A DNA stretch of 64,000 nucleotides. Source: Flavobacteriales bacterium. GTDB lineage: Bacteria > Bacteroidota > Bacteroidia > Flavobacteriales > JANQLC01. Below are positions 3,061-62,188 of this stretch, in pieces. The position numbers were made by a program, and so were the translations under genes. The stretch is taken from NCBI GenBank assembly GCA_028280815.1, contig JANQLC010000007.1, positions 81,574 through 145,573 on the forward strand, in the 5' to 3' direction. Numbering within the stretch: the first letter of the stretch is position 1; each line of letters opens with the position of its first letter. The notes below the pieces were generated by a model that was not told the origin of the DNA, did no database searches, and saw only the letters and a list, made by a program, of their open reading frames with translations.

Positions 3061-3063
3061 TTC

Positions 3064-7095: not shown

Positions 7096-7159
7096 AGCGC
7101 TTGGCGCCTGTGGGAACCGCCTTTGCAACCCAATGGGGTTTTTCCTTTCTTTTCCATAA

Positions 7160-8803
<1,644 letters not shown>

Positions 8804-8987
8804 ATCTGGGCGATTGTGAGATCATTTTTAGACCGAGTGAATGTCCTTGGCGCGATCTGTCTATGGGGTTTGATAAAAACGCAAAACGGACCTTGGGCTG
8901 TGGTGATTTGGAACGGATTTGCGTACGGATTTTTTGAATCGCATTTTAAATCGTATACTATATTTTTAAAGGATTGAGGAAAACGCG

Positions 8988-10817: not shown

Positions 10818-10899
10818 GCGGATGATCCAATTCGACACCGTATCGAATTTCTGAGACGGTGGTCCGTGGCCTTTTTGCCCGACTGCTCTATCTCACCGA

Positions 10900-10995
10900 G
10901 GCTTGAGATTAAAAAACTCTTTTCCCCTTTGTTCTCTTCCAACCGTGGGGGTGCTGAAAAACAGTGTATGCAGAGACTGCAGCGCTGGCTTTTTG
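10900..10995 (+). repeat. two GTTTGAAAAG-type repeat units (mini-locus of the GT-rich repeat family)
   Basis: TTGAGATTAAAAAACTCTTTTCCCCTTTGTTCTCTTCC...GTGGGGG followed by TGCTGAAAAACAG... resembles the units of the 38750-40275 array in the same orientation. It lies just 5' of the tRNA-Ser(UGA) locus. Confidence 0.35.
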
Positions 10996-11084
10996 GAGAT
11001 GGGCGGCTCGTGATGAGATCGCTACAAAACCGGCTGTGTGGAAGCCTGTCTCTCTTCTCGAATGCGCTGGTCTCAGGTTTAATT

Positions 11085-11172
<88 letters not shown>

Positions 11173-11276
11173 TGCGGCTGCAAATATAGCGTTTTTAGCC
11201 CTGTCCATCACCTGTGTTGAGGCCTTGTACGCCGGCTTCGACTAAGCGTGGAATTCCACGCCGTTTTTCTGGGGTT

Positions 11277-14200
11277 TTACGCCGTTGCGCGCGCTTTTTT
11301 GCGAAACCGAATCTTTCCCCGCTGCAACAGGTAGAGCATGACCGGTACGATGACCAGCGTGAGGAATGTGGCAAAGGACAGTCCAAATATTACCGTCCAG
11401 GCCAAGGGGCCCCAGAAGACGACATTGTCCCCACCGATGTAAGTGTGTGGATTGTAATCGCTGAAGAGCGAGAAGAAGTCTATGTTTAAGCCCGTAGCCA
11501 GGGGGATCAAACCCAAGATGGCCGTAATCGCGGTGAGCAGTACTGGGCGTAAGCGCGATCGACCCCCCTCTACGATGGCTTCAAAGTAATCCCGCTTTTC
11601 CAATAGCGCTGATTCGTCGAGCCCGCGCTCTGCTTTTTTGCGGTCGATGAGCAGCTGGATATAGCCGACCAAGACGATGGCGTTGTTTACCACGACCCCC
11701 GCCAATGCGATGATTCCCATCATGGCCATGATGATGATAAAGTCCATGTGAAATATCACCAGTCCGAGGAGCACACCGATAAAGCTCATTAAGACGGCCG
11801 TCATGATGATAAGCGGTTTGGAAATCGAGTTGAATTGTGCGACCAAGATCAAGACAATGCCGCCTACGGCCATGAGTAGGGCTTTGATCAAGAAGTTTAA
11901 ATTTTTTGATTGTTCTTCCTGTTCGCCTGTAAATTTATAGCTCATGCCTTTGGGTAGGGGAAAACCCTTCAACTCACGCTTCAGCCGCGCTACGATTTCA
12001 TTGGCGTTGTAGCCTTGTAAAACGTTGGAATAAAGGGTGATGACGCGTTTTAAGTTTTTGCGCTTGATCGCGCTAAACGAAGAAGTGGACACTTTTTTAC
12101 ACACAGTTGATATGGGTACTTGCTTCAATTGGCCATCGGTGATATCCCGGTATGTCACCGGTTGGTTAAAAAGCGCATTTTCATCGTAGCGGTAGTCTTT
12201 GTCGAACCGCACGTTGATATCGTAATCGTCTTTTGGGTCTTTGTAGGTGGATATTTTTTCACCGTACAGGGATCGGCGCAGGGTTAAGCCGATGTTGCTC
12301 GTACTCAAGCCCAGCGCGCCGGCTTTTTTGCGATCTACCCGTATGCGAATGCCGGGCTTAGAACGGTTTACGTCTATTTTTAAGGCTTCGATACCGTCTA
12401 TCTTTTTATCGTTGATAAAGTCGCGAATTTTTTCCACTTCGTCGAGCATAACCGGATAGTCATCGCCTGAGATTTCCAGGTTGATCGGATAACCGATGGG
12501 GGGGCCTACCCAATCTTTTTCCACGCTCATAGAGACGCCTGGATAGCCTTGCACAGCCTTTCGGATCCTTGCTAGCAGTTCTCGGCTGCTCATCCCGCGT
12601 CGGTACTTGTATTCGCGCAACGAAAGGGTGATCTTGGCTTTGTTCGGCATTTCGGATTGATTTCCGCTATCCGTTTGCGGGTTGCCCGCGCCTTCGCCTA
12701 CTTGCGCCACCCCTGACTCCACCATATAGTTGTAGCCGTCTGGGTCTTCGTATTTTTTGATGATATCATAGATGCGCTTTTCAATCGTCTCGGTAAAAGC
12801 GTTGGTCTTTTCGATGTCTGTGCCTTCGGGAAATTCGATATACGCCATGATCTGGTTGGGCAGGGTATCTGGAAAGAAATCCACTTTGGGCTGGGCTATA
12901 CCCACTAAGAAGAAGGACAGCAAGAGCAGCAGTACGGTTCCGAAGAAAAAGTAATATGCGCGCTTGCCGCTGAGGGCAAAGCGCAAAAGTCGTTGATAAG
13001 CGTTTTCCAATCGAGCCAGGAACACATGCTGAAAGTACCGTTCCGCTCGGCTGAGGGCGTATTTGTAAATCCACATCAGCAGGGCAAAGAACAAGATCAG
13101 GTTTCCCAGACCCCTTAAGAAACCGATGTTTTGAGCCCATCCAACGAGTAAAAACGAGGCGCCTACCAGTGCTGAGATAAGGCTTATGCGCACGAGCGCT
13201 TTCTGGCGCATGGTTCTTTCTTTCAATTGCATGAGGTGACTCGTGAGCGTGGCATTGATGACCAAGGCGACGAAGAGCGATGAAAAGAGCACGATGGAGA
13301 GGCTCGTGGGGAAGTAAATCATGAACTTTCCCAAGGTACCCGGCCAAAGTCCCAGTGGAAAGAAGGCTGCCAAGGTGGTCGCCGTAGAGGCGATAACAGG
13401 CCAGGCGAGTTCACCTATGCCCTGGATGGCGGCTTCTTTGCATGACAGGCCCTTTTCATTCATCAGGCTGTGAACGTGTTCAACCACCACGATACCGTTA
13501 TCGACCAACATGCCCAATCCCATCACCAGCCCAAATAACACTATGGTGTTGAGTGTAATGCCCATGCTGTGCAAGATCAGATAGGACATCAGCATGGAGA
13601 TTGGAATGGCAATGCCGACGAAGATGGCATTGCGCAGGCTGAGGAAAAACATCAGCACGCTTACCACGAGAATCACACCCAAAATGATGTTGTTGACCAG
13701 ATCGGCTACTTGGTCTTTAGTCATTTGGGATAGGTCGTTGGTTATGCTGATGTGCAGCGTTTTGGGTAGGTATGTTCGCTGTGCGTCTGCCACGATTGTG
13801 CGAATGCCATTTGTCGCTTCAATCGTGTTTTTGCCGGAGCGCTTTTTCACGTCTAGCATCACGACGGGTTTTCCAAATGCGCGTGCATAGGAGGTGGCGT
13901 CTTTTCCCACAAATGAAATCCGGGCGATATCCCCGAGGTAAACGACTCCGCCTTGCCTTTTGACCACGATGCTTTCCAGTTGTTTTGGGTCGGATATCTC
14001 ACCGACGATTCGGATGTTTTTGCGGATGTCGTTTGCGATGAAATCCCCACCGGAAATGGTTCTGTTTTCCAGCCGGATGCTGTTGACAATGTCGTCAAAA
14101 CTCACTTTGGCAGCCGCCATCTCGTAGGGGTCTACAGCGATTTTGACCTCTTTATCCGGTGCGCCTCGTATGGCTACCTCTTTGATTTCAGGCAGGCGTT

Positions 14201-14738
14201 CGATTTCGTCTTTCAGCTGTTCGCCGTATCCCTTGAGCTGTTGAATGCTGAAATTCCCCTCCAGGTTGATGTTGAGGATGGGGATTTCTTCCGAAATGTT
14301 GAGGTCGAATACCCTGGGTTCCACCTTTCCACCGTTATCCATCACCGGCCATTCGGCTTTGGCTTTGGCCAGGTCAACCTTGTCCTTTACCTTGGCCTTG
14401 GCTTCTTCCACAGCTATGCCTTCATCGAATTCGACGATGATGATGGAGTAGTCCTGCAAGGTGGTAGAGGTGATTTTGTTTACCCCGTTGATTTGTTTGA
14501 ACTCTTTTTCAAGTGGCTCTGTGATAAACTTTTCCACATCTTCGGCTGCATTCCCAGGGTTTGCGGTACTCACGTAAATCTTCGTCTCGATGATTTCGGG
14601 AAAAGCTTCGCGCGGCATGGCGTAATAAGAGAACAGACCACCCAGCAAAATAATCGCGATAATCACGTAAACTGTCACGCGGTTGTTAATCGCCCAGGTG
14701 GAGATGGGAAACCGTTTATCTGTTTTTTTATCGCTCAT
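11277..14738 (-). CDS. efflux RND transporter permease subunit (AcrB/HAE1 type)
   Basis: About 1150 aa with the two-fold TM / large-loop architecture of RND pumps, in an operon with the adaptor and TolC-like genes. The start is set at ATG 14738 (MSDKKTDKRF...); the ORF-track M at 14777 would overlap the adaptor gene by 50 nt. Confidence 0.92.
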   Translation of the reverse strand: MSDKKTDKRFPISTWAINNRVTVYVIIAIILLGGLFSYYAMPREAFPEIIETKIYVSTANPGNAAEDVEKFITEPLEKEFKQINGVNKITSTTLQDYSIIIVEFDEGIAVEEAKAKVKDKVDLAKAKAEWPVMDNGGKVEPRVFDLNISEEIPILNINLEGNFSIQQLKGYGEQLKDEIERLPEIKEVAIRGAPDKEVKIAVDPYEMAAAKVSFDDIVNSIRLENRTISGGDFIANDIRKNIRIVGEISDPKQLESIVVKRQGGVVYLGDIARISFVGKDATSYARAFGKPVVMLDVKKRSGKNTIEATNGIRTIVADAQRTYLPKTLHISITNDLSQMTKDQVADLVNNIILGVILVVSVLMFFLSLRNAIFVGIAIPISMLMSYLILHSMGITLNTIVLFGLVMGLGMLVDNGIVVVEHVHSLMNEKGLSCKEAAIQGIGELAWPVIASTATTLAAFFPLGLWPGTLGKFMIYFPTSLSIVLFSSLFVALVINATLTSHLMQLKERTMRQKALVRISLISALVGASFLLVGWAQNIGFLRGLGNLILFFALLMWIYKYALSRAERYFQHVFLARLENAYQRLLRFALSGKRAYYFFFGTVLLLLLSFFLVGIAQPKVDFFPDTLPNQIMAYIEFPEGTDIEKTNAFTETIEKRIYDIIKKYEDPDGYNYMVESGVAQVGEGAGNPQTDSGNQSEMPNKAKITLSLREYKYRRGMSSRELLARIRKAVQGYPGVSMSVEKDWVGPPIGYPINLEISGDDYPVMLDEVEKIRDFINDKKIDGIEALKIDVNRSKPGIRIRVDRKKAGALGLSTSNIGLTLRRSLYGEKISTYKDPKDDYDINVRFDKDYRYDENALFNQPVTYRDITDGQLKQVPISTVCKKVSTSSFSAIKRKNLKRVITLYSNVLQGYNANEIVARLKRELKGFPLPKGMSYKFTGEQEEQSKNLNFLIKALLMAVGGIVLILVAQFNSISKPLIIMTAVLMSFIGVLLGLVIFHMDFIIIMAMMGIIALAGVVVNNAIVLVGYIQLLIDRKKAERGLDESALLEKRDYFEAIVEGGRSRLRPVLLTAITAILGLIPLATGLNIDFFSLFSDYNPHTYIGGDNVVFWGPLAWTVIFGLSFATFLTLVIVPVMLYLLQRGKIRFRKKARATA

Positions 14739-15906
14739 GGCCTTTTGCATTCTCAATCGATACCTCGTCTCCGTCACTTACGTCGGCCGCCCCTGCTGCT
14801 ATCAGGATTTCACCCGGTGATAGCCCACTGCGCACCTCGGTTAGGGAACCCGTGGTCAGTCCGGTGGTGATAATCCTTTGCTCGGCTCGACCCACATTTC
14901 CCTCACGCTTTGTAATGGTGTAAACTATTTCTTGCCCTTTTGCATTTTTGCGGATGACGTTTTGTGGAATCACCAGTGCTTCGGGGTTTTTGTAATCGGT
15001 GATCTCCAATTTGGCGATGAGGTTGGGTTTTACGAGACCGTCTCGGTTTGGGATGTCCACCTGAATGCTAAAAGAGCGGTTGTTGGGGTTGACGAAGTTG
15101 CTCACCTGACGGATTGTACCGTCATAGGTTTTTCCAATGCTCGGTAAATGCACGTTGACGCGATCGCCTAGGGTGATATTTTCTATGTAATTTTCAGGGA
15201 TTTCCGCTTGTACGTACATGTTTTTCAAATTTACGATACGCATGATTCTCGAACCTGGGGCCACTACTTCTCCACGATTGGACAACACTTGTTCAATCGT
15301 ACCGTTGAAAGGGGCGTGGATCTGCGTTTTTGCCAGTTGGGCTTGCAGCTGCTGAACGCTTTGTCGGGCGGTTTCCGCTTGGGTTTTGGCTTGCAAGTAT
15401 TGCATTTCGGAACCTATTTCTTGATCCCACAGCCGCTTTTGTCGCTCGAAAGTGGTCTCTGCCAACCGCGCTTGCGCCTGGGTTTGTAAAAGCCTTTGAG
15501 CCAGGCCGCCGTCGCCAATGCACGCCAAGAGTTCCCCCTTTTTTACCGTGTCGCCCTCTCTCACATACACCCGATTTAAGATGCCGCTGTATTCTGAAAA
15601 GAGGATCAAGTTCTGCTTGGTTTCTACGTTCCCCTGAATGGCTGTAAAATGCTCGAAAGCGGTATCTCTTACCCGGACGGTGGTAACCGGGATTTGGATC
15701 GACTTGGGATTCAATCGAGATAGGGCCTGATCCAATTGCTCAAGCTCGAGCTCTAGTGCGTCGTATTGTTTTAATATGGAATTCTTTTTTGCCTTGATCA
15801 AGTCGACTTTACCCGTGGCGATAACCGATTGGGTGGTCTTATCGGCTGTTTCTTTCCCACAGGAAAAAGCCAGTAGGATGGGCAGCAGGTAGCATAACTC
15901 TTTCAT
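14728..15906 (-). CDS. efflux RND transporter periplasmic adaptor subunit (HlyD/MFP family lipoprotein)
   Basis: Lipobox LLAFSCG, a coiled-coil hairpin (LQAQLAKTQ) and beta-barrel domains, between the TolC-like and RND genes. Confidence 0.9.
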   Translation of the reverse strand: MKELCYLLPILLAFSCGKETADKTTQSVIATGKVDLIKAKKNSILKQYDALELELEQLDQALSRLNPKSIQIPVTTVRVRDTAFEHFTAIQGNVETKQNLILFSEYSGILNRVYVREGDTVKKGELLACIGDGGLAQRLLQTQAQARLAETTFERQKRLWDQEIGSEMQYLQAKTQAETARQSVQQLQAQLAKTQIHAPFNGTIEQVLSNRGEVVAPGSRIMRIVNLKNMYVQAEIPENYIENITLGDRVNVHLPSIGKTYDGTIRQVSNFVNPNNRSFSIQVDIPNRDGLVKPNLIAKLEITDYKNPEALVIPQNVIRKNAKGQEIVYTITKREGNVGRAEQRIITTGLTTGSLTEVRSGLSPGEILIAAGAADVSDGDEVSIENAKGHER

Positions 15907-15910
15907 GGTC

Positions 15911-17272
15911 TCATGGTTTAATGGGTACGTCTAATGCGCTTCCTAGTTTGGCCCTCGCATTGATCACCTCCAATAGGGATTGTAAATATTTTCGCTGGGC
16001 TTGATACAATTGTCGTTGGGCGCTGTTTAGCTCTTGACTGGTACTGATGCCTTCAAAGAACTTGGTTCGTTCTTTTTTCTCTACGTGCTCGGCTAGGCTC
16101 AGATTTTGCTTCGTGGTCTGATACTGATCTAAGGCAAATCGGTAATTGCTCTTGGCGCTTTGCAGGTTTAATAATATGTGCTGTTCGGTTTGTGCCAAAT
16201 GGTTTTCGGCGATTTTCAGATCGACTTTAGCCGCTTGAATGCGGGCCTTTCTCCCCAAACTGCTAAAGATCGGTATGTGTAAATCCACGCCGAGCAGTGC
16301 CGACCCAAACCACTTCTGCCTGTTTTCGAAAAATGAGAATGAATCGGAATAAGCGTTTTGACCATAACTCAAAAAGGCGGACAGGCTCGGTAGCGATTGG
16401 CTCTTCTCGTGCTTCAGCTGTAGCGTCCGGGCTGCTTTGTCGTTTTCAGCGATGCGGTGGTCGATGTGGCGCGATATCGAGAAGGGTTCTTGTAATATGT
16501 TGTCATTCATGGATTCAGCGGCCAGTTGCTCCATTTTTTGGCTGAGGTGAACGGGCGACTCGATATCGCGCCCCAAGGTCATATTGAAGCGTTCATAAGC
16601 GATTTTTTCCTGGCGCCTGGCGCTGCGCAGCTGGTTTTCCATGCTGTGTAGATTGATCGCCAGCTGTTCGGCATTTTCAATTTCCATCAAGCCGTTTTTT
16701 ACGGCGGCATCGGCTTCGCGGAAACTCTGCTGCAAGACGCTTAGGTTCTCTTTGAGGATTTGAATCATCTCTTCGGCCAGCAGCGCATTTCCGTACGCAT
16801 TGACCACCGATTCGCGAATGCGCTGCTCGGTTTTTTCCCTTGTATTTTTTGAGATGAGCAAATAGGTTTTGGCCGATTGTAAGCCGATTAGATAGGAACT
16901 GTTGAATAAGAGTTGGGAAAGCGTTGCCGAGGCGCTCAGGTTTTGTGCTGTGGTAAAGGGCAACATCTCGTAATCCCCTTTTTTGCCACCAGGAAAAAAT
17001 TCTGCCGGTGTGGGTTGTAGGGGTTTTTTTAAAAAATTTTTATAGTCGAGCTCTGCACCGATTTGTGGCAGTCCGATACTCGTGGACTCCCATTTTTTTT
17101 TCCTTGCCTTTTGAATTTCACATGTCGCATCTCGGATGGCATAACTGTGCGCTAAGGCGTATTGTAAAGCCGCTTTCAGGCTGAAGCTCACTGGGATGGT
17201 ATCACCGCGATGTTGTGCGAAGAGAAGACCATGGGTAATGAGACAAAAACAAATGAATAACTGTTTTTTCAT
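15911..17272 (-). CDS. TolC-family outer membrane efflux protein
   Basis: A signal peptide and two OEP-type repeats. It is the first gene of the efflux operon. Confidence 0.88.
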   Translation of the reverse strand: MKKQLFICFCLITHGLLFAQHRGDTIPVSFSLKAALQYALAHSYAIRDATCEIQKARKKKWESTSIGLPQIGAELDYKNFLKKPLQPTPAEFFPGGKKGDYEMLPFTTAQNLSASATLSQLLFNSSYLIGLQSAKTYLLISKNTREKTEQRIRESVVNAYGNALLAEEMIQILKENLSVLQQSFREADAAVKNGLMEIENAEQLAINLHSMENQLRSARRQEKIAYERFNMTLGRDIESPVHLSQKMEQLAAESMNDNILQEPFSISRHIDHRIAENDKAARTLQLKHEKSQSLPSLSAFLSYGQNAYSDSFSFFENRQKWFGSALLGVDLHIPIFSSLGRKARIQAAKVDLKIAENHLAQTEQHILLNLQSAKSNYRFALDQYQTTKQNLSLAEHVEKKERTKFFEGISTSQELNSAQRQLYQAQRKYLQSLLEVINARAKLGSALDVPIKP

Positions 17273-17843
17273 CTATGGTGATTTGATTTTTAAAGCGCGG
17301 GTTTGGTATTTGCCTTTGACCGTGGTGAATGCTGTGCAGCTGGTGTGCCAAGGGTCCGCTCACCCGTCCCCAGTAAATTTTGCGATACATGCGGCAGGTG
17401 GTAGACCGCCTTTGTAGCGATGCGGTAGGTGAATGAGGTGGTGCTCAAAATTTTTTCTTCCATGGGCTTTGCTCAGGTGCAAATGTATGTATAACTCATA
17501 TATCAAGCGTACGGGGAAAAGAAGGCCTTTGGTTTTTGCACTGTTAGTAATCACGATGTTCGCATGGTTTGCCCGATAAATACATCCGGGTTTATCGCGT
17601 AACGAATTTTACGACTCTCTGCTATCCTCGCATAGGGGTTTTCGCCAAAGCGCTTGTTTCACCGTTCTTATTCCATTACTCGGCTTCTTCAGCGATATAC
17701 CTCGCCATCATACCTTTTCGGTTCTTCTTAACGGATTTTTTAAATTTTGGACGTCTTACCTTTCCAAAATCAGGCGATTCCTCTTTCAACCCTTACGTTA
17801 AAAAAACATTAACTACATCTGCCAGACCCTTAAAATCGAAAAT

Positions 17844-17978
17844 ATGAGAAAGACGTTGTTTTTTCTGATCGCAGTCGTTCTCAGCCTTACCACCGGTTGC
17901 AATGAAGATCGAGGAATCGTATCTCAATCGGATACCGGGATAAAACCGGCCGGCTCAATCCCGGAAGCGATAAAATAG
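17844..17978 (+). CDS. small putative lipoprotein (44 aa), possibly the 5' remnant of a disrupted longer gene
   Basis: MRKTLFFLIAVVLSLTTGC has a signal peptide plus lipobox. The TAG at 17976-17978 is in frame with ORF 17982-18185. Too short for the ORF track. Confidence 0.3.
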   Translation: MRKTLFFLIAVVLSLTTGCNEDRGIVSQSDTGIKPAGSIPEAIK

Positions 17979-18334
17979 CCGATGCCATCACCTATCATCA
18001 ATACCATTTTTAGGGGCGATAGCCCAAATACCGAAGAGGCCGGGCAGTCAAGCGGTCTGGAAGGGAGGAAAATCTCCAAAGGGGATAGAGCCGATATCAT
18101 CGATATAAAGGATCGTAAAAAAGAGCACATCTTAAAATGGGTCTGCTTTAAACCCCGTGGTTACGCCTTGATCAGCGCGCTTTGAAAGGCATCCCGAATC
18201 CGGCGGTCTCGTTCTATTCGGAAGGAAAGTTCGATCGAAACCATCCCAACTCCGGGATGGAATATTTTTTATTGTTCAACCCTTCATTGTTTTTTACAAT
18301 ACATTTTAAGTCTGATGCGTATTCGTTTCTCGTT

Positions 18335-20850
18335 TGGTCGCTTGAAAAGGAGAACTCGTTTTGGCGCTCGCCTGTAGGTCAGTAAAAAGCATTTTTTATC
18401 GTCTGACGGTTTAAAGAAGCGGACTTGTCCTTTTGTTTCTGCACTGTGTTTCAGTTGCAAAATGCCGACTGCGGCCTATAATTTGCACGGGCCTGAATCG
18501 CCGGCTCTTATTTTTTTGCTCTTATCCCTGTGGTCAGCTGCGCTGGCCCCGCTACGCAGGTTTGGTAAGAGATGGGCATCTAAGGGGTCAACCCCTTGAT
18601 TCTTTATTGTATGTTCTTCTCAATTGGGTAGGGCCTGAAAGGCTGGTGTTGTTTTCTCGTCTTTGTCCTTTTGTGCGCGTTTGGAGGCTTGGGTCTTGTT
18701 TTCTCGCTGCTGTTTGGCCTTTATAAAACGGCTTGTTTTGCGTTGGGGAGTTCCCGCGTTTTTTGCTTTGTTTCGCCGGTGTTTTGACGAACTGTTTTGT
18801 CGGTTGCCTTGCCGGGTTATTGGGTTGTTGTGTTGCGGTGGGCTGACTGGTTTGAGCTGGCTTGGATTGAGCAGCTGGGTTTGGTTTAGATTGGTTTACA
18901 CAAGGTGTTTAAAAGGCGTTTTTGACAGGGGAAATGAAGGCGGCTCGGTGGTGGCTATGGGTGGGTTGATTTGTTCAGTGGGCAGTGTATGGGTCTATCG
19001 GTTGAATTGGGTGGCTTGGATTGGGTTGTTGGGTTTTGTTGTCGATTGTGTTTGTGGGGCTGGCGAATTGTTAGCTCGGTTGGTTGCCTGACTTTGGTTT
19101 GATTGCTCAGGTGCTGGTTTGTCTTCTTGGTTTTTCTTTTGTGTTGGCTTGATTTCCACCCTTTGGTTTTGTTCTCTTGGGCTTGTTTAAGGGTTTGGGG
19201 CTGTTCTTCCGTTTCTGTTTGTCAGTTTAAAAGGGTTTTTGTCCTCAACCTCTTGAAAAGGGAGGCTTGCCTTTTTGGCTTTGTCGTTTGGGGCGTTTGG
19301 TTGGTTGAATTGGGGTGCGGTGTCGTTGTATTGGCTCGGTTGGGTTGGCACAAAGTGTTTGAAAGGTGTTTTTGCCATTGGGAAAAGGCGGGCCCGTCGG
19401 CGGCTTCGGGTCGGGACTTTTTTATGCTAAGCGGTTTTGAGTCAGCGGCGCTTTCGTATTGATAAAGGTTTGCATTTCACTGGCTTGCTGGGTTTGGGTT
19501 GGTTGAGTTGGGTTAGTCGAATTGCTCTATTGGTTTAGTGGGTTGGTCGGGTGGTGGTTGGTTGACTGGCTTGACTTGGTTGGCTTGGGTTGAGTGGGTT
19601 TGTCGGGTTGGATTGTTTGAGTTGATTGACTCGTTGGGCGTAGTGGGTGCGGTTCGATTGGATTACGTCGGTGCGGTTGGCTTGGATGGGTTACAGTGGA
19701 CTGCGCTCGGTTGGTTTGTTGTGGTTCGTTTGGGTTTGTTTCGGCGTGTTGCGTCGATGTGTTCGTTGGGGTTGGGTGATGGTCTTGTGATGCGGCGGTT
19801 GGATTGGGTTGTGATGCAGGGCGTTGCGTTTGTTTCGTTTGTTTTTTTACCATCCTTGAAAGAAATAAACTACTGCTGTTTTGTATGCTTGTGCTGAGTT
19901 GCTTAGCCCCTACTGGGTTGTTGCGTTGCGGTGGATTGGCTGGCTTGGATTGTCGTAGTGGGTCGGTTTGGGCTAGCCGGCTTGGATGCGCTGATCGATT
20001 GCTTCAGTAGCTTGGTATGGCTGGTTTGTCAGTGTGATTCATCGGGTTGGACTGGGTTGATTTGGATTGGCTCGGTGGATTGGTTTAGTGGATTGGGTTG
20101 CTTCGCACGGGTTGGATGGGTTGTGGTGGTGTCTTTGTGTTGATCGATTGTATTCTTCCTCTTCGATTCCTTTGGTATGGGTTTTTTCTGTGGTCGATAT
20201 AGGTGGATTTTAGACTTCTCGTTTTTTGTCCCTTCTCCTGCAGTTGGTTTTTTTGCGTTTGGCTTTCCGCTGATTGGCTTGGGTGGTTTTGGGCTGGATG
20301 GGCTTGTTTGATGCGTTGTTGCGTTGCTGCATGGCGGTGAGTCGTCGCATTGATTGTGTCGGATTGTTTGATAGGCTTTGAAAGAAGTATGACCCTTGCT
20401 GTTTCGGGTGCTTGGTCTCTCTTGGTTTTGTCGGGTGGGCTGGATTGGCTCGTCGGGCGTAGGGGGGTCGTTTGGATTGGGTTAGGTGTGTGCGATTGGG
20501 TTGGATGGTTTGCGGTTGGTCGGCTCGTTTTCTCGGTTTGGCTCTTTTGTGGTGGCTTGAAGCAGGCGGTTTGTTTTCTCCCTTTTGTGCGCGTTTGAAA
20601 ATTCGCAGCCCTTTCCCCTTTGGCCATTTAAAGAGCGGGGATTATTTTTTGCAAAGGCGTATTGTCTTTCTGGTTTTTCCCTTTTGCGGGCCAAAGCGGG
20701 TGTTCTCGTCTTTGATCGCTGGATTGGGCTTTTCGTCTGAGATGTGTTCTCAGTGCGCTTGGGGTCGAAGGCCTGTCGCCCAATCGGTCTGTTGGAGCTT
20801 TTCGGCTGTCTTTGAAAACATCGGTGTAGCGGTCGAAGTGAGGCTCCAAT
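18335..20850 (+). repeat. G+T-rich non-coding composite repeat block, locus 2 (largest)
   Basis: 2.5 kb without a credible gene. The two lines I counted (19561-19620 and 19741-19800) are 83% and 82% G+T. Contains GGNTTGG simple repeats, GTTTGAAAAG-type units and the conserved box GTGTTT(G/A)AAAGG(C/T)GTTTTTG at 18903 and 19354. Confidence 0.75.
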
Positions 20851-23164: not shown

Positions 23165-23232
23165 GCGCTGCAAAATTCTGAAACGAACCTAAGGGAACCC
23201 CGTTGGCTATCTGATTGAAAGGAGGTCGGGGA

Positions 23233-23651
23233 TCAGCTCTCGGAAAGGGTGGTGGTGTGATCCCGTAACTCCTCACCGAGATGGGTTGTGTTTAAAGTGG
23301 GCAAATTAACAGGCGGAAAGCCCGATAGGTTGGTCAATGTGGAAATATAGGCTCTGATATAGGGAAACAGCAGGGCAGGAGCGTTCACATAAAAAAATGT
23401 ATCCAATTCGTCAAGCGCCGTTTTCTTTTTGAAGCTATAATCAGCTGTTGCGTCAATCTCAATGTGAAATGATCCGTTCTCAGCTTCAATCTCTACGCCT
23501 AAGGACAATTGAAACCTACCCTTTTCTTATCTATTACACCTTTGGGAGAAAAGGCTATGGACAGCTCTTTAGGCAGCTCACCTCTCTTAGGGCACTCGAT
23601 TAATGAACGGGTGATGGTATAGCCTTTAAATTGAGATTTTGAATGTTCCAT
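23233..23651 (-). pseudogene. SecB-like chaperone, interrupted by a single-base frameshift
   Basis: The C-terminal ORF carries the SecB signature NAPALLFPYIRAYISTLTNLSGFPPVNLPTLN. The N-terminal part starts at ATG 23651 (MEHSKSQFKGYTITRS...) and runs into a TAG, while the downstream frame opens in the overlap around 23505-23530. The total of 419 nt is one base short of 140 codons. Confidence 0.7.
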
Positions 23652-23656
23652 ATTGC

Positions 23657-24046
23657 TCAAGCGGCCAGTGCATGGACTTCATCGTGCCGTGGGGTCATGG
23701 CTTTAGCATAAGCACTCAGAAATTTGAATTCGGGAATGGGCTTATCAAGGTGAATTTTCTCCCTATACCCCAACTCGTACCCCAACTTGAGGTCGGCATG
23801 TTCTATCTCGGTTAAGGAGTCCTCCGAAATAAATAGGATATCTTCCTGTAGAAACAAGGATTCAAATTCGTCCCATATTTTTTTCTCTTCCAGTATATAA
23901 TCTTCATCGTTTTCAAAAAAACTCAAAGCAATCACTTCGATTGTATGTCTACCAGTACAGAACCGATATTCATATCGAATTCGGATTTGTGGAAACTTTG
24001 CATGTAGCGCCTTCAATTCTTTCGTTACAAATTCGCTCGCTGTCAC
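23657..24046 (-). CDS. hypothetical acidic protein (129 aa), middle gene of the HEPN/SecB-like operon
   Basis: GTG start with a 4-bp GTGA overlap on the upstream stop; its own stop lies 5 nt before the SecB-like ATG. I recognise no domain. Confidence 0.6.
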   Translation of the reverse strand: MTASEFVTKELKALHAKFPQIRIRYEYRFCTGRHTIEVIALSFFENDEDYILEEKKIWDEFESLFLQEDILFISEDSLTEIEHADLKLGYELGYREKIHLDKPIPEFKFLSAYAKAMTPRHDEVHALAA

Positions 24047-24336
24047 AACTCGAATGTTTGGGTTAGATACCTTTTAATCTCTCTCGCTTTGCGCAAAGCG
24101 GTCTCGCCCTTTTCTATATTGATTTCTATATCGCGGTAGTCCGATTCTATCCTATGTTTTTTTAAATCATCAACCTTTCTACGAAAAAGCTCACTTTCTT
24201 TAGGGCCGAATAATTTTTCTAATTGGCGGACAATGTGATCCCTGACATATAGATGAGTTCCTCCCTTAACAGATTTGCTTTCCGTGTCTTGTTTTTTATA
24301 GCTTATACATAAGACGCTTTTTAGGGTATATTTCAT
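24043..24336 (-). CDS. HEPN-like domain protein (97 aa)
   Basis: KKHRIESDYRDIEI followed by the helix GETALRKAREIKRYL resembles the R..(A/S)DY region and last helix of PF05168-type HEPN domains (from memory, not searched). Confidence 0.5.
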   Translation of the reverse strand: MKYTLKSVLCISYKKQDTESKSVKGGTHLYVRDHIVRQLEKLFGPKESELFRRKVDDLKKHRIESDYRDIEINIEKGETALRKAREIKRYLTQTFEL

Positions 24337-24506
24337 CAGTTGAAAACAGCTGTAATAAGAACAGTGCGCAGCAGGGGCATACAGGGATGCGCTAATCAGT
24401 CAGTTCGGCAGCTTCTTCATTCAGCTTGGATTTTTCTCTAAGCCTGCTCATGGATACCGGGGCAAGGGTACGTTTTTTTGAATATGCGTCGGTTTCGCCG
24501 GTGTCC

Positions 24507-25973: not shown

Positions 25974-26555
25974 CTATGAGGAAACGTGCTCCCAATTTTC
26001 GCCCTTTTTGATGCGGTAGAGTTGCATTTCCGAGATGCCGAATTGTTTGGCGATCATTTTTAAGCGGGTCTTTCGGTTGGGATCGAAGATCCTTCTCTTC
26101 AAGTACTTCACCCGGGTCTCGGTCAGCTTTTTCCCCGCATAGGGCTTGCGGTTTTTATTTTTGGCCTTTCCCAGTATGACATTGGGATTGCGCTCGTGGT
26201 GTTGAACCAATTCGTCTTTGGACACCCATTTCAAATTGGACCAGTGGTTGTTCAACTTGTTGTAATCGATATGGACTATAAATTTTTGCTCTGCTTTCGG
26301 CTTGGGTAAGAAATACTCGGCCACGAGCTGGTGCAGGTACCTGCTCTGATGCAAGAGCTTATCCCGTTTGCTTTTTAACCATACCCGATATTTGAAGACG
26401 GGGTATCCCTCGGCCAAACAGCCTTTTAAGAGCCTACCCTTTTCCAAGTTGGTCTTAAAGCTCATCAAGCGCCCAAAGTCGGAGATGGCATACCGGAATT
26501 TTAAACGGCATTCTAAGGCTACTTCTCTCCATTCTTCTCCAGGGAAGAATCGCAT
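25974..26555 (-). CDS. NUMOD4-motif HNH endonuclease with C-terminal helix-turn-helix
   Basis: GEEWREV...YAISDFGRLMS (NUMOD4), HIDYNKLNNHWSNLKW (HNH_3-type), and a C-terminal MIAKQFGISEMQLYRIKKG. The start is set at ATG 26555. Confidence 0.8.
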   Translation of the reverse strand: MRFFPGEEWREVALECRLKFRYAISDFGRLMSFKTNLEKGRLLKGCLAEGYPVFKYRVWLKSKRDKLLHQSRYLHQLVAEYFLPKPKAEQKFIVHIDYNKLNNHWSNLKWVSKDELVQHHERNPNVILGKAKNKNRKPYAGKKLTETRVKYLKRRIFDPNRKTRLKMIAKQFGISEMQLYRIKKGENWEHVSS

Positions 26556-26861
26556 TATATGTTTTTTGCAAAGGTAAAAATATCGGGCGATAGATTCACT
26601 TCGTTTAACTTGGATGGAAACCTTTGCACCTGGGCTGAAAATGACGGGATGCATTGAAATTTAGACGAGCGATAACTTCTGCGGGATTCAAAGCTGGGAA
26701 AAATGCGTGGATTTGTCAAGAAAATTTGGCTCTACGTGAAAGCTCAGAAAGGGATTTTTGCCAATCGAACAGCGAGTCCAGGATTCAATGGGCTTGGGTT
26801 TCACAGCGCTTAAAGGAATATCCAATATGGACAGCACGAGTATGAGGAGTGCTCAACCCGC

Positions 26862-34709: not shown

Positions 34710-34837
34710 GGTCCCTCACACCGGACCACCTTTGGAATCGGATAAAAATAACCGAGCCTAGCTTGAATCGACGGGGCTATCGGCTTTGTTTTGAAACTTA
34801 CGGGGCTTTGGCGATCAGCAGGGGAGACTCCATTGCG

Positions 34838-35645
34838 GGCGGGTTTCTAAATGGTGTTGCTCCTGTCGATTTTTTGCATTTGCTTTTCTACGGTTGGTGA
34901 TGGTTAGATTTTGAGCTGGGTTGTTTTTTGTCCTTGTGTTCTCCGTCGGGTTTTTGCACTTCTCATCTCTTTGCTTCTTGTACGGGTCGGTTTTTTGCAT
35001 TTTTTCTACCATTTGGTGTGGATGGACTTTGGATTGCATGGGTTGGGTTACTCAATTTGTTCAGTGTGCTGTTGCCTGATTGGCGTGTGAGCCTGTCGGC
35101 TGGTTGGGTTGTTTGATTGGGTGTCTCTTATCGGTTTTTTGCATTTGTTTTTCTCGGGCGGGTTTTGGATCCTGTGGGTTGGATGGGTCTGTTCTTCATC
35201 GAGTTCCTCGCGTGGGTTTTATGCTTGGCGTAGGTGGGTTTTGAGCTGTGTTGCATTTGCAATGGCTGGACGGGATCGGATCTTTTACACGGGTCTTTTC
35301 TGCGATGGGTGTGGGTGGGTTTTGGACTTCTCGCCTTTTCCCCTTTTTCCTGTTCGGATTTTTTGCATGGGCTTTTTCTGTGGCTGGTTTATGCAGTTTT
35401 GCCGGTTGGTGTACGTCATTTCGCTCTCGTTTGTGCGCGAGTGCATTTGTCGGGTTTTTGCATCGGCATTTTTCGGTTGATGTAGTTGAGTCGGCTGGAT
35501 TTCCACCCAGTGTTTGAAAGGCGTTTTTGCCCTTGGGATTAAGGCGGCTTGTCAAGGGTTGCCAGTCGGCGCTTTTTTACCTGAGCCGTTTTGGGTCGAC
35601 GGCGTTTTTGTATGGATCAGGGCTTGCGTTTCGCTTGAGCCTGGT
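34838..35645 (+). repeat. G+T-rich non-coding repeat array, locus 3
   Basis: TTTTGCA(T/C)TT-type motifs at 34870, 34951, 34991, 35135, 35358, 35451 and 35466. Segment 34987-35134 matches 1383-1529, and 35509-35645 matches 19354-19492. Confidence 0.7.
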
Positions 35646-35685
35646 GAATGGATATAGTCGTTAGTCGGCTTTAACCCTATGGCAG

Positions 35686-38749: not shown

Positions 38750-40275
38750 CAGCCTCAGTTTTTGCATTTATGCGGTGTCTCGTTTGTAAAATCCCAGTGT
38801 CGCATAAATCATATGTTTGGGCTTCAAAGGGGATAAGCTCGTTTTTTTGTTTTATCCCCATAGGGTTGATTTAAAAGTCGGTCTTCCCATTTTGTTTTAG
38901 CCTTGTGAGATCGGCCTGAAAACCCAAGCCTATCTCTCCCCTATGGGTCTATCTGAAAAGCGCCTCTTATTTTTGGCGCTTGTGCATTCCGGTTGTAAAA
39001 TCGCAATCACCTCGTCGGTCAAACCGGATCAACCTCAAGGGTTTTTACCATATAGTTAAACTAAGGGACTGAAGAATAGATTTGTCTTTATCTTGTGAGA
39101 GTGGTTTGAAAGGGGTCTATTTTTTGATCCCATCCCTGTTGTGGGGCCGTTTGAAAGGGAGGCTTATTCTTTGATTTTTGCCTATCTCTGTGGGTCGGTT
39201 TAGAAGGCGAATTGTTTTTCCCTTTCCGTTTGGTAGCTTAAAAATGAGGCTCGTCTTTTGTTTTGCCTTTGTCCTCTCTGGTGCAGGTCCCGATGTTGGC
39301 CTAAATCGAAAGTGTCTAAACAAGGGTTTATTTTTTGTGCTTGTCCCTGTGTGGGATTTGAAGGGGGCTTATTTCTTTGTTGTCGTCCTTGGGATTCGGT
39401 TTAAAAAGTCGGTGCTATCTCTCGCCCTGTGAGGTGGAGCTGAAAAGTGGGCATGCTTTTCTACTTTTGTGTTGATCTGAAGAATCCGCCTTGTCTTTGG
39501 TTTCCGTAGAGCCAGTGCGGCTGGGTTTTGTTGTATTTTCAACTTGGGGGCATTCTGAAAAGCAGGGTTTACGCTTTCACTTTGTCCTTTTGTGGTAACT
39601 CGGTGGGGCAGGGATTTATTTTTTGTTTTTGTCCTGTGCGGCAGTTTAAAAAGGGGGACTCTTGTGCCTACCTCTGTTGTGCCCCGGCTGCAAAATCCCA
39701 ATCGCGTCATCGTGGTCAAATCGGTACAGTACTGCCTTGGGAAACGGCTGAGAAGGGGCTTATCTCTTTTTGTGTTTATCTGTGCAGCAGTTGGAAAGTC
39801 AGATTTGCTCTTTGGTTTTATCTCCGTATGGATATAGCAATGCGAAAATCCAGCTCTGTCTCTTTCTTCTGTGTGACGGTTTGAAAAGCGGCCTTATTCT
39901 TTTGTTTATATGCTTCCAGCTGCAAAAGTCCAATTGCATCGTCGATCAAATCGGAAGGGACTTGTTTTTTGTCCCCGAGGAGCCTGGAAAGCGGGTCTTG
40001 TCTTTATCCGGCGTATCGGTTTTGAAAATGGGGTGGTTTTTTTGCCTTTGTTCTGGTTTGGCAGTTTAAAAAGAGCGCTTTTTTGTCTGATCGGCAATCG
40101 ATTTGGGTTGGCTCCACTGGTTTTATCAGGTGTTTATCCCGGCGTGCTTTGGTCTGAAAAAGCGGCTTTATCCGCTGTGAGGAGTCTGAGTCTCCAACTC
40201 TATTTTTGCCCTTTTGCGCGGGTTTGAAAGAGATCGTCCTATTTCTTTGCGTTTGCCTCTACGCGCTTTGGGTGT
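38750..40275 (+). repeat. tandem array of roughly two dozen degenerate 36-60 bp units (GTTTGAAAAG...CTTATTCTTTTGTTT...CTGTG), locus 4 of the GT-rich family
   Basis: Unit starts read at 39103, 39149, 39198, 39237 and so on (periods 46, 49, 39). A sub-repeat CTGCAAAA(T/G)(C)CCAAT.GC.TC.TCG..(G/A)TCAAA(T/C)CGG occurs at 38992, 39687 and 39918. A TTTTTGCATTT motif lies at 38758. Confidence 0.75.
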
Positions 40276-48314: not shown

Positions 48315-48644
48315 ATGCTTGCCATGAAAAGAGGTGTTTTAATGGCAGTGCTAAGCGCGGGAATCTTGGCTGTGTTTTCGTTTAGAGGGGTAAAAAACAC
48401 CGGTGTGTCGCCCCGCCTGGCAGAGGTTGGAGCCTGTTCGATAGGGTCCGGTGACTGTGATAACTTTACGGAAACCTGCAGGACATCCTCGGATAAGTTT
48501 ACGGAATGGCGTCGGACCTGGAGTAAGTATTCTCCTACCACTATCCCCACTGCTAAGAAGACAGAATCGAGTAAAGAGGTGGATAAAGCGAAAAAAGAAG
48601 CGGAAAAGGTGAGTGAGATTAGCCATGCATTAGAGCGGTTTTGA
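48315..48644 (+). CDS. small secreted/membrane-anchored Cys-containing peptide (109 aa), unknown family
   Basis: An N-terminal hydrophobic segment, a core with three Cys (GACSIGSGDCDNFTETC), then DKFTEWRRTW and a K/E-rich tail ending SEISHALERF. The coding frame is supported by protein-level similarity to the decayed copy at 49055-49331. Confidence 0.5.
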   Translation: MLAMKRGVLMAVLSAGILAVFSFRGVKNTGVSPRLAEVGACSIGSGDCDNFTETCRTSSDKFTEWRRTWSKYSPTTIPTAKKTESSKEVDKAKKEAEKVSEISHALERF

Positions 48645-49054
48645 TCCAGTAGGCATCTTTTTAAAGGCGAGAAATATATTTATGCCTGCCCAGGCCTGCT
48701 ATTCTACCCGTTTTGCGACCAATCCGATTGATCGGTCTTACTCCGTGTGTATCGGAAACCACATCGGCTACAGCTTTTGCGAAATGAACCCAGTTGCTTC
48801 ATTCAAAGATTGATGAATACGAGAAAAAATATAAGGCCGAAAAGGGCAAAGACGAGATAAAGGAATCCTTTTTTTAGTCCAAAAAGCCGGCTTGGTGAAA
48901 CGGTTAAAGAGAATGTCACAAGAGGCTAATAAGGTGTTGGTCAATCGGTCTTTTGTGGCATACAGATCTGAGCTAATTATATTGCCCATTATGGATGCTT
49001 TTCAAAACCTTTTTTTGGTTTATTGTTGAATTACATAATTCAAATATACCTGTG

Positions 49055-49331
49055 GTGAAAAAGTACTTTTAATCGGCGTGCTCGGCCTGGGAATCTCAAT
49101 CTTGGCTTCATTTAGAAACGTAAAAACAACGATGTGGTGCCCACTCTGACAAAGGTCTACGCCTATTCGCTAGGCTTTGGTGTATTTGAAGAATCTTATC
49201 ACGTGACACCGGATAAATTTGTGAGTTGGCATAGGCGGTGGGTTGCGTATGCGGATTGTCCGGGGCCGCGTAAAAAATTGGAAGAGGAAGCAAATGCGAG
49301 CGAGATCAGCCGGGCATTAAAGCCGCTTTAA
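49055..49331 (+). pseudogene. decayed paralogue of the 48315-48644 peptide gene (two frameshifts, all Cys lost)
   Basis: Three frames joined by hand give MKK / VLLIGVLGLGISILASFRNVKTTM / VVPTLTKVYAYSLGFGVFEESYHVTPDKFVSWHRRW...ASEISRALKPL. This aligns with the upstream peptide; C to Y substitutions occupy two of the Cys positions. Confidence 0.45.
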
Positions 49332-49365
49332 TGACATCTCTTTTAAAGCCTGAAAGTATACACTT

Positions 49366-49866
49366 ATGCTAGCCAAAGCCCACTACTTGATCCATTTTGG
49401 CGTCATTTTTCTGGTCTCTCTATCCGCTGTGCTGAATTCTTATTTGATGCATAAAAAAATCAAGGCTGGAAACCTATCCGCGCTGAATCACTTCATCGAG
49501 AGAAGCGTTGTCGATAATCCGGTTTATCACGCCTATTCCATATTTACGGGAACCAATAACGGATACGGCTTTTACGGGATTAACGTAGCCACCTATAAGT
49601 ATTTTAGCGTCGAACTATACGACAGGGATAAAAAATGCATTGCGAAGACGCACACATTTGGGTTTAAAAAACAGAACAATCTAGCTCGATTTGAAGTTTT
49701 GGCCTCGAGAATCGCGAATTATATCGCGGATAACGAGGAATTTCCCAAAGAAGGAGATAAAGAATTACTGAAGGCGAGAAAGCTGTACGTCAACGAAATA
49801 TTCAAGCACATCGGCTTGTACGAAAAAGAGGTGGGAATTTATAAAAGCCTTGCGCTTAGCTATTAG
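49366..49866 (+). CDS. N-terminally membrane-anchored protein of unknown function (166 aa)
   Basis: One N-terminal TM helix followed by a soluble domain (NNGYGFYGINVATYKYF). It overlaps or abuts the HTTM gene, in the same position that SdpA occupies next to SdpB in sdpABC-type loci. The similarity to SdpA itself is not established. Confidence 0.55.
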   Translation: MLAKAHYLIHFGVIFLVSLSAVLNSYLMHKKIKAGNLSALNHFIERSVVDNPVYHAYSIFTGTNNGYGFYGINVATYKYFSVELYDRDKKCIAKTHTFGFKKQNNLARFEVLASRIANYIADNEEFPKEGDKELLKARKLYVNEIFKHIGLYEKEVGIYKSLALSY

Positions 49867-50699
49867 ATTCAATGCGCCGAGTCATCAAATGGGCTATTTC
49901 AGCGCCATCGCATGCTTTAGAATCGCTGTTGCCACCTTAGTCTTAATCGATTTCTGTTGCGTTTTTTACGAATTAAAAATCTTTGCCTCCGATCAGGCCA
50001 TCTTACCGTTGGGGCTGGGCCTTATTCAAACCGAGTACCACACCCTGTTGAGTCCGCTCTATACTTTTATGACGGATCACAATCTCAGTATTACGGTTTT
50101 TATGACCGCGGTTTCCATATTGTACCTGTTGGCTTTGGTCTTTTGTATTTTGGGTTTTCACACGCGAAAATCCTTCTTCACCGCCTTGATCTTACAATTG
50201 CTGATATTCCGATCCATCCCGAATTTCAATTACGGTTACGATAGTTTTATCACCATGTCTTTCTTCTATTGCCTGTTGTTTCCCGTTGGGACGGAATACG
50301 CGCTGGACAGTTATCGCAAGGGCGAGAATAGATCGAGGCGAAAAATGCCATCCAGGTATTTTTCATTACCCTTTTACTTAAAAACCCATTTGTGCATCGT
50401 TTATTTCGTATCGGGCCTCTCGAAAGTCTTGGATCCGAATTGGTGGGATGGAAATGCGATTTGGCGTGCCTATGACGATCTGAGTCCTGCTCTTTACGTA
50501 CCGCCTTTCCTTTTGGCTACTCTGTCTTTATCGGTCGTCTCTATCGAGCTGCTCTATTCCTTTTTGGTCTGTACGAAATTCCGCAAAGTTTACGGTAGTC
50601 GATATGGCTCTCATCCATTTGGGCATCGGGATATTTTTGGGGCTGTCTTCCTTTGCAGCAGTTGTGTATAATCCGAAAAACGAAATCAGGTCAGTTTGA
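49850..50699 (+). pseudogene. HTTM-domain (SdpB / vitamin K-dependent gamma-carboxylase-like) polytopic membrane protein, frameshifted near the 3' end
   Basis: FRIAVATLVLIDF..., GFHTRKSFF, IVYFVSGLSKVLDPNWWDGNAIW are HTTM-like. After about 50585-50595 the expected continuation TVVDMALIHLGIGIFLGLSSFAAVV is in the next frame and ends at TGA 50697-50699. The true start may be ATG 49889. Confidence 0.7.
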
Positions 50700-62115: not shown

Positions 62116-62188
62116 CCCTTAGCGGCTGTGCTGGATGGCTTTTGCCTACGTTAAAATTTTCTATTTTTGTCCCATCTATCGCCATCAG

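Follow-up and report, generated by a model that had tools for sequence, protein, structure and literature searches.

With reference to described bacterial repeats, several kinds of short intergenic and non-coding sequences have been characterized. The direct TAACTGA repeats of marine Beggiatoaceae are intergenic, non-coding and confined to one lineage (PMC4679880), repetitive extragenic palindromes (REPs) and bacterial interspersed mosaic elements (BIMEs), together with the REP-associated tyrosine transposase (RAYT) of the Y1 HUH type, are tied to single-strand DNA processing (PMC3333891), and single-strand transposons of the IS200/IS605 type insert into the lagging-strand template (PMC5027513, PMC6006769). 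In this study, a stretch of 64,000 nucleotides from a Flavobacteriales bacterium (assembly GCA_028280815.1, contig JANQLC010000007.1, positions 81,574 to 145,573), hereafter the window, was investigated for the long G+T-rich arrays, numbered 1 to 5, that lie between its genes, with emphasis on array 4 (34712-35685, +), which takes up the entire spacer from the M42 peptidase gene (+, ending at 34709) to dnaX (-, ending at 35686). We observed that these arrays are homologous to one another, direct in orientation, non-coding, without structure, and co-oriented with the leading strand. They match no described repeat family and are restricted to one lineage; intergenic direct-repeat systems specific to a lineage, and tandem satellites, come nearest to them.

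Comparatively, the arrays resemble the cyanobacterial short tandemly repeated repetitive (STRR) heptamers in being direct, non-coding, intergenic, found in one lineage and present in very many copies. However, the STRR and TAACTGA repeats are exact 7-nucleotide (nt) tandem repeats, whereas the units described here measure 15-200 nt, are degenerate and of several types, and build arrays of up to 2.5 kb with a G+T content of 0.72-0.76 on one strand. Satellites and variable number tandem repeats (VNTRs) share with the arrays their growth by duplication, turnover between species and unit types differing by lineage, but the arrays of the window are mosaics of diverged modules common to several loci. 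The likeness to REPs and BIMEs lies in abundant short intergenic non-coding repeats in mosaic clusters, a few units of one family carrying a small hairpin; those elements, however, are imperfect palindromes of 20-40 nt that usually alternate in orientation, whereas palindromes are lacking in two of the three unit families here, all copies are direct, and the strand asymmetry is extreme. Neither a stem-loop unit nor inverted repeats were found within the arrays (folding z ~0 on both strands of array 4), matches in both orientations were not observed, and no RAYT or Y1 HUH gene was detected in the 64-kb window or in the Pfam-annotated gene calls of the other loci fetched. Elements of the IS200/IS605 type and their palindrome-associated transposable elements (PATEs) offer a known route by which repeats can gain one polarity relative to the fork, namely insertion into the lagging-strand template, and at all our loci the G+T strand is leading-strand sequence, with one replichore sampled; unlike them, the arrays come with no transposase, subterminal hairpins, defined ends or target site, and their units are tandem and mosaic. 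Likewise, no element ends, end hairpins or 4-5 nt target could be defined in a PATE-directed test. Inverted arms, as in miniature inverted-repeat transposable elements (MITEs), are missing, and the comparison of filled and short spacers gave no alignable boundaries. In place of the near-identical 23-47 nt repeats with even, unique spacers of clustered regularly interspaced short palindromic repeats (CRISPR), the longest exact repeats have two copies each and the spacing of the units is irregular. Chi, the FtsK orienting polar sequences (KOPS) and SpoIIIE recognition sequences (SRS), and the architecture imparting sequences are, like the arrays, G-rich and biased to the leading strand, but they are words of 5-8 nt scattered through genes and spacers; here there are kilobase intergenic arrays in which no such word was identified. 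Tests for membership in an Rfam, promoter or coding family were all negative. Relative to known direct-repeat families and tandem satellites, what sets the arrays apart is the unit size, the mosaic structure, the extreme keto skew and the strict single polarity.

An earlier note on this DNA, made from its letters alone, had aligned 34987-35134 in array 4 with 1383-1529 in array 1 at about 85% identity, and formal alignment bore this out with 130 of 152 positions identical (86%), three indels (3, 5 and 1 nt) and a score of 194 against 21.8 +/- 3.4 in 300 dinucleotide shuffles (z = 51). For a second pair, 35509-35645 and 19354-19492 in array 3, the reported identity of roughly 75% held (98 of 129, 76%; score 97 against 18.4 +/- 2.9 in dinucleotide shuffles, z = 27), but the two indels that had been counted there became four of 1 nt each within the wider bounds 19327-19481 and 35481-35635. 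When the spacers that carry arrays were compared with the entire window by sensitive blastn, 22 further matches were obtained, each plus/plus, and among arrays 1, 3, 4 and 5 (E<1e-3) there were 25 plus/plus and 0 plus/minus matches, as compared with 0-1 in dinucleotide-shuffled array sets (n = 30). The longest exact repeats are of 28 and 33 nt, two copies each, the 33-mer being common to arrays 1 and 4 (1374-1406 and 35122-35154). The copy shared by these two arrays starts exactly at one conserved core and stops just past the next (1383-1546 and 34987-35151), and the pre-core and core at 35102-35154 are 93% identical to 1352-1406. Array 4 has three modules in the order gamma-beta-delta, whereas array 1 has beta-gamma and array 3 delta-beta, and this differing order implies several copying events instead of one segmental duplication. 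The claim that the arrays are related by descent or copying, and not by low-complexity drift, is therefore upheld by the z values of 27 to 51, the 25 matches against 0-1, the exact 33-mer and the modules that recur in differing order. Substitutions between the paralogues are mostly A/G and C/T, transitions making up 58-81% in the three main pairs.

The sequence is indeed G+T-rich and of low complexity, and assemblies break there, which would favour a low-complexity by-product or a sequencing or assembly artefact; two short-read contigs begin inside arrays, at window positions 1377 (L067, within the array-1 copy of the 33-mer) and 35305. Nevertheless, along arrays 1, 4 and 5 the window agrees at 99.6-100% with Logan and Tara assemblies made from other samples, the arrays themselves being matched at 99.8-100%, and these identical independent assemblies, along with the shuffle controls, rule out such an origin to practical certainty.

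Three types of unit, referred to here as families A, B and C, are combined in the arrays as a mosaic. Family-A units, of ~145-200 nt, are headed by TCGGnTTTTTGCATTTGTTTTTCT and occur in arrays 1 and 4, in a sixth array to the right of the window and as one unit in array 3; their core has the consensus ...CTCYTRTCGGnTTTTTGCATTTGTTTTTCT, followed by GGTTGG..GGATTTTGG, their T-tracts show a sub-period of ~14-15 nt, and the exact word TTTTGCATTTG is present in five copies in the window, all on +. Family B consists of low-complexity G+T tracts resembling TGGATTGGGTTG, in the centre of array 3 and at 1560-1700. A family-C unit, 40-50 nt long, reads YTGAAAAG, G-run, (C)TTATTTTTTG, C-run, TGTG, G-run, GGTTT, or more simply GAAAAG, G-run, T-run, C-run, TGTG, G-run, GTTT; such units are found in array 5, on both flanks of array 3, in the final 150 nt of array 4 and weakly at 10860-11000. 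With a family-C profile built from the units of a related genome (hits counted at E<=10), 30 hits on + were obtained in the window, and the six minus-strand hits were weak (E>4) and inside genes. Moreover, a module of ~45 nt, CTGCAAAATCCCAATC..CGTCATCG..GGTCAAATCGG, recurs within the family-C arrays of both species (window 38775-38830, 38985-39035, 39685-39735, 39915-39965 and 18455-18500; ~3085, 7670 and 7795 of the relative's L064), and some copies are flanked by short complementary arms that are specific to the copy (CCGGTT/AACCGG, CTTCC/GGAAG).

In array 4, all features lie on +. A family-A core copy, TCGATTTTTTGCATTTGCTTTTCT, is located at 34866-34889 and is followed at 34987-35154 by a unit copy made of core, ~100-nt module, pre-core and core, whose two cores (34987-35010 and 35131-35154) delimit a copy of the ~144-nt unit of array 1 (1383-1546, 86%). 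The second module (35293-35400) matches array 1 at 1141-1245 (72%) and array 3 at 20179-20266 (74%), and terminates in the core-like TTCGGATTTTTTGCATGGGC; a degenerate core, TCGGGTTTTTGCATCGGCATTTTT, stands at 35450-35473. The third module (35481-35635) opens with the family-C-like GTGTTTGAAAGGCGTTTTTGCC and matches array 3 at 19327-19481 (75%) and also at 18893-18965. It contains the sole terminator-like hairpin of the spacer (35585-35612), GCCGTTTTGGGTCGACGGC then GTTTTTGTAT; a reading as terminator arrays was rejected, one such site being fewer than the 2.9 of shuffled sequence, with no enrichment. T-tracts in array 4 recur at 7.5/14 nt, and in the relative at 7.5, 13.5 and 14.5 nt in the family-A tract and at 38-46 nt in family C. 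The units are 60-92% alike and irregularly spaced, and Tandem Repeats Finder reported in the window only short, weak arrays, among them a weak 14/28-nt array at 19494-19624.

With regard to the other loci, array 1 (1055-1800, +) lies between tRNA-Ser(GCT) and the bamD promoter, and holds family-A cores at 1201, 1383, 1526 and 1731 and a family-B tract at ~1560-1700. Array 3 (18335-20850, +) lies in the spacer of the outer-membrane efflux (OEP) gene and prfB, and combines a family-B G+T core with family-C units at either flank and modules common to arrays 1, 4 and 5; many UGGAUUGG or GGAU motifs were noticed on + at 18849-20509, which we take as a lead only. Array 5 (38750-40275, +) is situated in the rplI-sucC spacer with ~25 family-C units, each on +, and the weak locus counted as array 2 (10860-11000, +) has one or two family-C-like units beside tRNA-Ser(TGA). 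The two tRNA-Ser genes, at 739-823 (+) and 11085-11170 (-), thus adjoin arrays 1 and 2, and several other arrays come after highly expressed genes (rpsF-rpsR-rplI, prfB, sucC). A sixth array, homologous in plus orientation to arrays 1 and 4 and likewise G+T-rich on +, was found via the same-strain short-read contig L071 (11900-12294, at ~69.1 kb in window coordinates), where it comes after an M20 peptidase gene; that contig terminates within it. In total, the arrays make up ~10% of the window and fill at least six intergenic spacers across ~75 kb.

Strand composition was evaluated locus by locus. The earlier note had described all five loci as G+T-rich on +, and this stood for 1055-1800 (0.76), 18335-20850 (0.725) and 34838-35645 (0.73; 0.69-0.73 for array 4 as a whole), but it is weak for 38750-40275 (0.62) and for 10900-10995 (0.56); at 10860-11000 the G+T content is also 0.56 and the family-C profile gave no match. 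The latter two loci belong to the system through their family-C units and not through composition. The gene map confirmed that the flanking genes run in both directions. GC and TA skew at third codon positions were computed separately for + and - genes, and on the + strand the GC3 skew was -0.02 and +0.14 for the two gene orientations (mean +0.06) and the TA3 skew +0.11 and +0.12. Enrichment of G and T at third positions is the usual leading-strand signature, and since both are enriched on + whichever way the genes run, the G+T-rich strand is the leading strand. It follows that in the six arrays of this genome, as in three of the relative, the G+T-rich strand is leading-strand sequence, i.e. 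the lagging-strand template. To this extent the suggestion that the uniform orientation may reflect replication or a strand-specific process is compatible with the leading-strand skew, with the sixth array and with the three arrays of the relative. The skews of the arrays (GC ~0.35, TA ~0.63) are several-fold above those of the neutral-like third positions, so that mutation bias alone is insufficient as an explanation.

Tests for coding capacity, RNA families and structure were negative except for one weak hairpin signal. Indels of 5, 1, 1, 1 and 1 nt between paralogues break the frame, and the three codon phases have equal shares of the mismatches. When the translations of 13 array open reading frames (ORFs) were concatenated and searched against 5.8 billion proteins, no match was obtained, not even to ORFs called on Logan contigs, a result that is uninformative on copy number. 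Rfam 15 at gathering thresholds detected in the window only the two tRNA-Ser genes, and at E<=1 the arrays gave one chance match, to an insect lncRNA model. Folding of array 4 did not differ from shuffles (z = 0.28 and 0.08 for the two strands; 0.21 for the terminal module), and the pairing of G-runs with C-runs in family C is generic and without covariation (permutation z = 0.3-1.2). A weak unit-specific signal was noticed for a CCC-TGT-GGG hairpin of family C (permutation z ~3.4), derived from three units in the relative; stems of at least 6 bp were seen at only 3 of the 31 TGT sites in family C. No G3 motif of the G-quadruplex kind is present on the + strand of the arrays, and phased A/T tracts, as expected of curvature, show no periodicity near 10.5 bp. 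The Bacteroidota -33/-7 promoter pattern (TTTG, N17-23, TAnnTTTG) is absent inside arrays 1, 3 and 4. It is predicted (TTTG-N19-21-TAnnTTTG) at 673-704 (+), 1812-1843 (+) and 37441-37411 (-), directly upstream of tRNA-Ser(GCT), bamD and dnaX, respectively, and these putative sites confirm, at the level of sequence, that the phylum-specific promoter type is used in this uncultured lineage. As for the TTGCAT core, inspection by eye led us to discard a sigma-54 reading, since GG and GC are 7-8 nt apart and not 11-12, and a sigma-70 scan gave no site.

Comparison with a relative (GCA_044670265.1), 80-87% identical to the window in the nucleotide sequence of its genes, revealed how the arrays turn over. 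Its contig JADOBR010000108.1 is collinear with window 1848-17272 and has there the same third-position skew pattern; a ~21-kb inversion then follows (window 17273-38638 against L025 7840-21677), both end points of which fall in array-bearing spacers (OEP and array 3; rplI and array 5). Since distant relatives (DnaX 58-60% identical) keep the sucC-rplI adjacency, the gene order of the window is ancestral, and since the inverted block still shows reversed GC3 and TA3 skew, the inversion is recent. Three arrays of the relative were located on L064: one at 1650-2700 with 15/30/45-nt tandem units of TTTTTGCAT / TTTTTGCGnCTTRG, one at 2700-3970 with very regular family-C units, which adjoins the 3' end of the tmRNA gene (L064 3987-4384, -), and one at 6830-7960; another is at L025 8150-8620. 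The array next to the tmRNA gene is the largest of that genome. Tandem periods there are 15/16, 28/30 and 43/45 nt at 64-87% matches, all arrays lie on the strand collinear with window +, and the family-C profile gave 45 hits on + and one weak hit on - in L064. Across the two species, 12 blastn matches were obtained, all plus/plus, against 0-1 with shuffled arrays.

Nevertheless, between the two species the arrays occupy different spacers and cannot be aligned, yet they share short motifs. The comparison of orthologous sites, which the earlier note had proposed, thus turned out negative, the relative's arrays being in other spacers; the dnaX-M42 spacer measures 976 nt here and 150 nt there, where it is mildly G+T-rich in the same gene-relative orientation, and in their alignment only the gene ends match, with no insertion boundaries mapped. 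The rplI-sucC spacer, 1753 nt here, measures 135-240 nt in distant relatives, where a terminator hairpin is all it holds, and relatives with 64% identity in BamD have no arrays in the homologous region. On a shorter scale, near-identical strains (99.6-100%) display no gain or loss of units in the array stretches covered by two assemblies, array 5 (to 40088) differs between strains by 3 single-nucleotide polymorphisms in 1.45 kb, and two genomes of the relative differ by 2 gaps in 11.6 kb, including the tail of one array.

We tentatively favour, at somewhat less than an even chance, that the arrays are selfish or neutral satellite-like DNA with a replication-linked polarity. Local duplication of units would enlarge them, and ectopic gene conversion or template switching, with the conserved 25-50 nt cores as homology, may copy segments from one locus to another or homogenise them. 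Their one polarity might come from replication-coupled copying via the single-stranded lagging-strand template, or from the removal of inverted copies; both the copying mechanism and the cause of polarity are what we infer. Such arrays would be tolerated in a genome of low coding density, where they would be neither genes nor structured RNAs, and low coding density fits relaxed selection. Several points weigh against satellite-like DNA. No copying mechanism was observed, and array boundaries are indefinable as orthologous spacers do not align. All array loci lie in one syntenic ~75 kb and hence in one replichore, so that the polarity comes from one replichore only, with six of six loci alike at p ~0.03 under random orientation. 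At 0.72-0.76, the G+T content greatly exceeds what the local third-position skew would give, and it looks constrained or derived from a founder sequence. Across species, short motifs (TTTTTGCAT; GAAAAG, G-run, T-run, C-run, TGTG) are kept despite turnover of the arrays, which could equally mean function. Lastly, bacteria usually delete useless DNA, and 10% of junk is unusual.

The persistence of motifs, together with a uniform polarity that agrees with the leading strand and a composition far above local mutational skew, leads to an alternative that we deem unlikely though by no means negligible, namely that the arrays are functional, replication-polar cis-elements: kilobase clusters of polar signals comparable to Chi or KOPS, or polar transcription barriers. 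In the barrier version, the minus-strand RNA, C-rich, G-poor and nearly unstructured, would serve as a Rho-loading site that aborts head-on transcription, and the G-rich plus-strand RNA would escape Rho. The composition of that RNA (C ~0.30-0.34, G ~0.16-0.19, the complement of the + values) and its minimum free energy, -85 kcal/mol over 663 nt where the plus strand reaches -179, are in line with this, and in four of five cases in the window and two of three in the relative the array directly follows the 3' end of a minus-strand gene (tRNA-Ser, prfB, dnaX, sucC, tmRNA, rplI). However, four of five arrays with a minus-strand gene to their right, against a baseline of ~40%, is non-significant (p ~0.09), and array 1, the L064 6790-7970 array and the sixth array come after plus-strand genes. 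Known polar signals are motifs of 5-8 nt running through genes, not kilobase intergenic arrays, and close relatives with the same genes lack arrays in the orthologous spacers, so that the arrays are dispensable. In its broadest form, that the arrays are chromosome-wide, kilobase-scale, replication-oriented elements with a polarity-dependent function (Rho loading, or super-clusters of recombination or translocase signals), we hold the proposal to be quite improbable. A single polarity would also be left by decayed non-autonomous single-strand DNA mobile elements of the IS200/IS605-type PATE or REP/RAYT-like kind, as such elements come to share one orientation with respect to the fork. For single-strand transposons, the lagging-strand template is a documented target (PMC5027513, PMC6006769, PMC3333891), REPs resemble the subterminal hairpins of IS200/IS605 (PMC3333891), some family-C units carry the CCC-TGT-GGG hairpin with unit-specific stems of 6-8 bp (z ~3.4), and copies occur at non-orthologous loci in two species. 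This origin is nonetheless doubtful, in view of the lack of a Y1 transposase or RAYT in the window or in the Pfam-annotated fetched loci, of families A and B without hairpins or inverted repeats and with folding z ~0, of a family-C hairpin signal from three units only, and of units that are tandem and mosaic instead of discrete insertions, with no definable element ends or target sequence.

Products of the arrays were weighed as well. Long GU-rich (or CA-rich) non-coding RNAs could act as sponges or platforms for the single-strand RNA-binding RRM-type Rbp proteins, which replace Hfq and CsrA in Bacteroidota; we give this only a slim chance. RbpB of B. thetaiotaomicron binds the G/U/A motif GUAGGAUA in vitro (bioRxiv 10.1101/2021.04.27.441718), and array 3 is rich in UGGAUUGG, with 8 of the 15 plus-strand copies of the window inside it, but this link rests on one 8-mer from another genus. 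Plus-strand genes precede arrays 1 and 4, and no convincing terminator intervenes up to the end of the array; even so, the 3.6-kb spacer of array 3 has no Bacteroidota -33/-7 promoter on +, no Rfam family or conserved structure was recognized, and the arrays are not conserved at orthologous positions. That the arrays encode small proteins, whether from the minus-strand ATG of the core (MQKTD(K/R)R...) or from short plus-strand ORFs, is nearly refuted. The core ATG stands in an A-rich start context, which Bacteroidota use instead of a Shine-Dalgarno sequence, nine cores give minus-strand MQK, MQN or MQR starts with AAACAAATG upstream, and gene callers placed ORFs of 62 and 105 aa in array 5 and of 66-72 aa in the relative's arrays. 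Yet the minus-strand core ORFs vary between 10 and 135 aa and do not share a C-terminus, CA-rich DNA lacks stops by composition alone, the paralogue indels break the frame without codon periodicity, and the called ORFs have no Pfam match.

If the polarity follows replication genome-wide, the arrays would clearly exemplify, in nature, kilobase-sized repeats without palindromes and with extreme strand asymmetry that are oriented by the fork, and would raise questions on how the single-stranded lagging-strand template drives repeat birth. If functional, they would suggest a novel type of polar signal on Bacteroidota chromosomes, and if mere junk, they would still serve to indicate that selection is relaxed in this flavobacterial lineage, which may be host-associated. 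In practice, arrays covering ~10% of the region break short-read assemblies at exact repeats, which accounts for the fragmentation of the lineage in metagenome assemblies, and they cause gene callers to place spurious small ORFs.

The arrays are carried by a deep-branching uncultured member of the Bacteroidota known only from marine metagenomes. Its closest named DnaX relatives are Flavobacteriaceae at ~50% identity, the nearest metagenome-assembled genome is labelled 'Flavobacteriales bacterium' by NCBI, and exact protein matches are confined to Logan assemblies and Tara metagenome contigs. In 185,579 species-representative genomes the core TCGGNNTTTTGCATTTGTTTT had 17 single matches, in unrelated taxa and none in a G+T-rich context; the same pattern gave 34 single chance matches in JGI metagenomes and none in the viral contigs of IMG/VR, where an 18-mer of the shared module had 6 chance matches in coding regions. 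Blastn of array 4 against plasmids and phages showed no similarity, and the searchable literature held no relevant description of G+T-rich or polar intergenic repeats in Bacteroidota.

Apart from the arrays, the window has no transposase, and its genes are ordinary housekeeping genes, a SusC/SusD pair and an ORF with HNH and NUMOD4 domains. Coding density is low, with gene-poor stretches at 17273-18330 and 23165-24506. These two and 48315-50671 have no ORF of at least 100 aa, or only ORFs without a Pfam match, and the G+C content of 48315-50671 is 0.42, as compared with ~0.51 elsewhere; such gene-poor and Pfam-free stretches suggest pseudogene remnants or an island, and a low coding density overall. 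The ORF at 25974-26654 (-), with HNH_3 and NUMOD4 domains, is homing-endonuclease-like and sits amid housekeeping genes, and the relative has it too (L025 20236-21096). The gene at 62135-64000 (+) runs off the window, and the same-strain contig L071 identifies it as a gyrB/parE-type topoisomerase subunit, followed there by a DNA_topoisoIV-family subunit of the parC/gyrA type.

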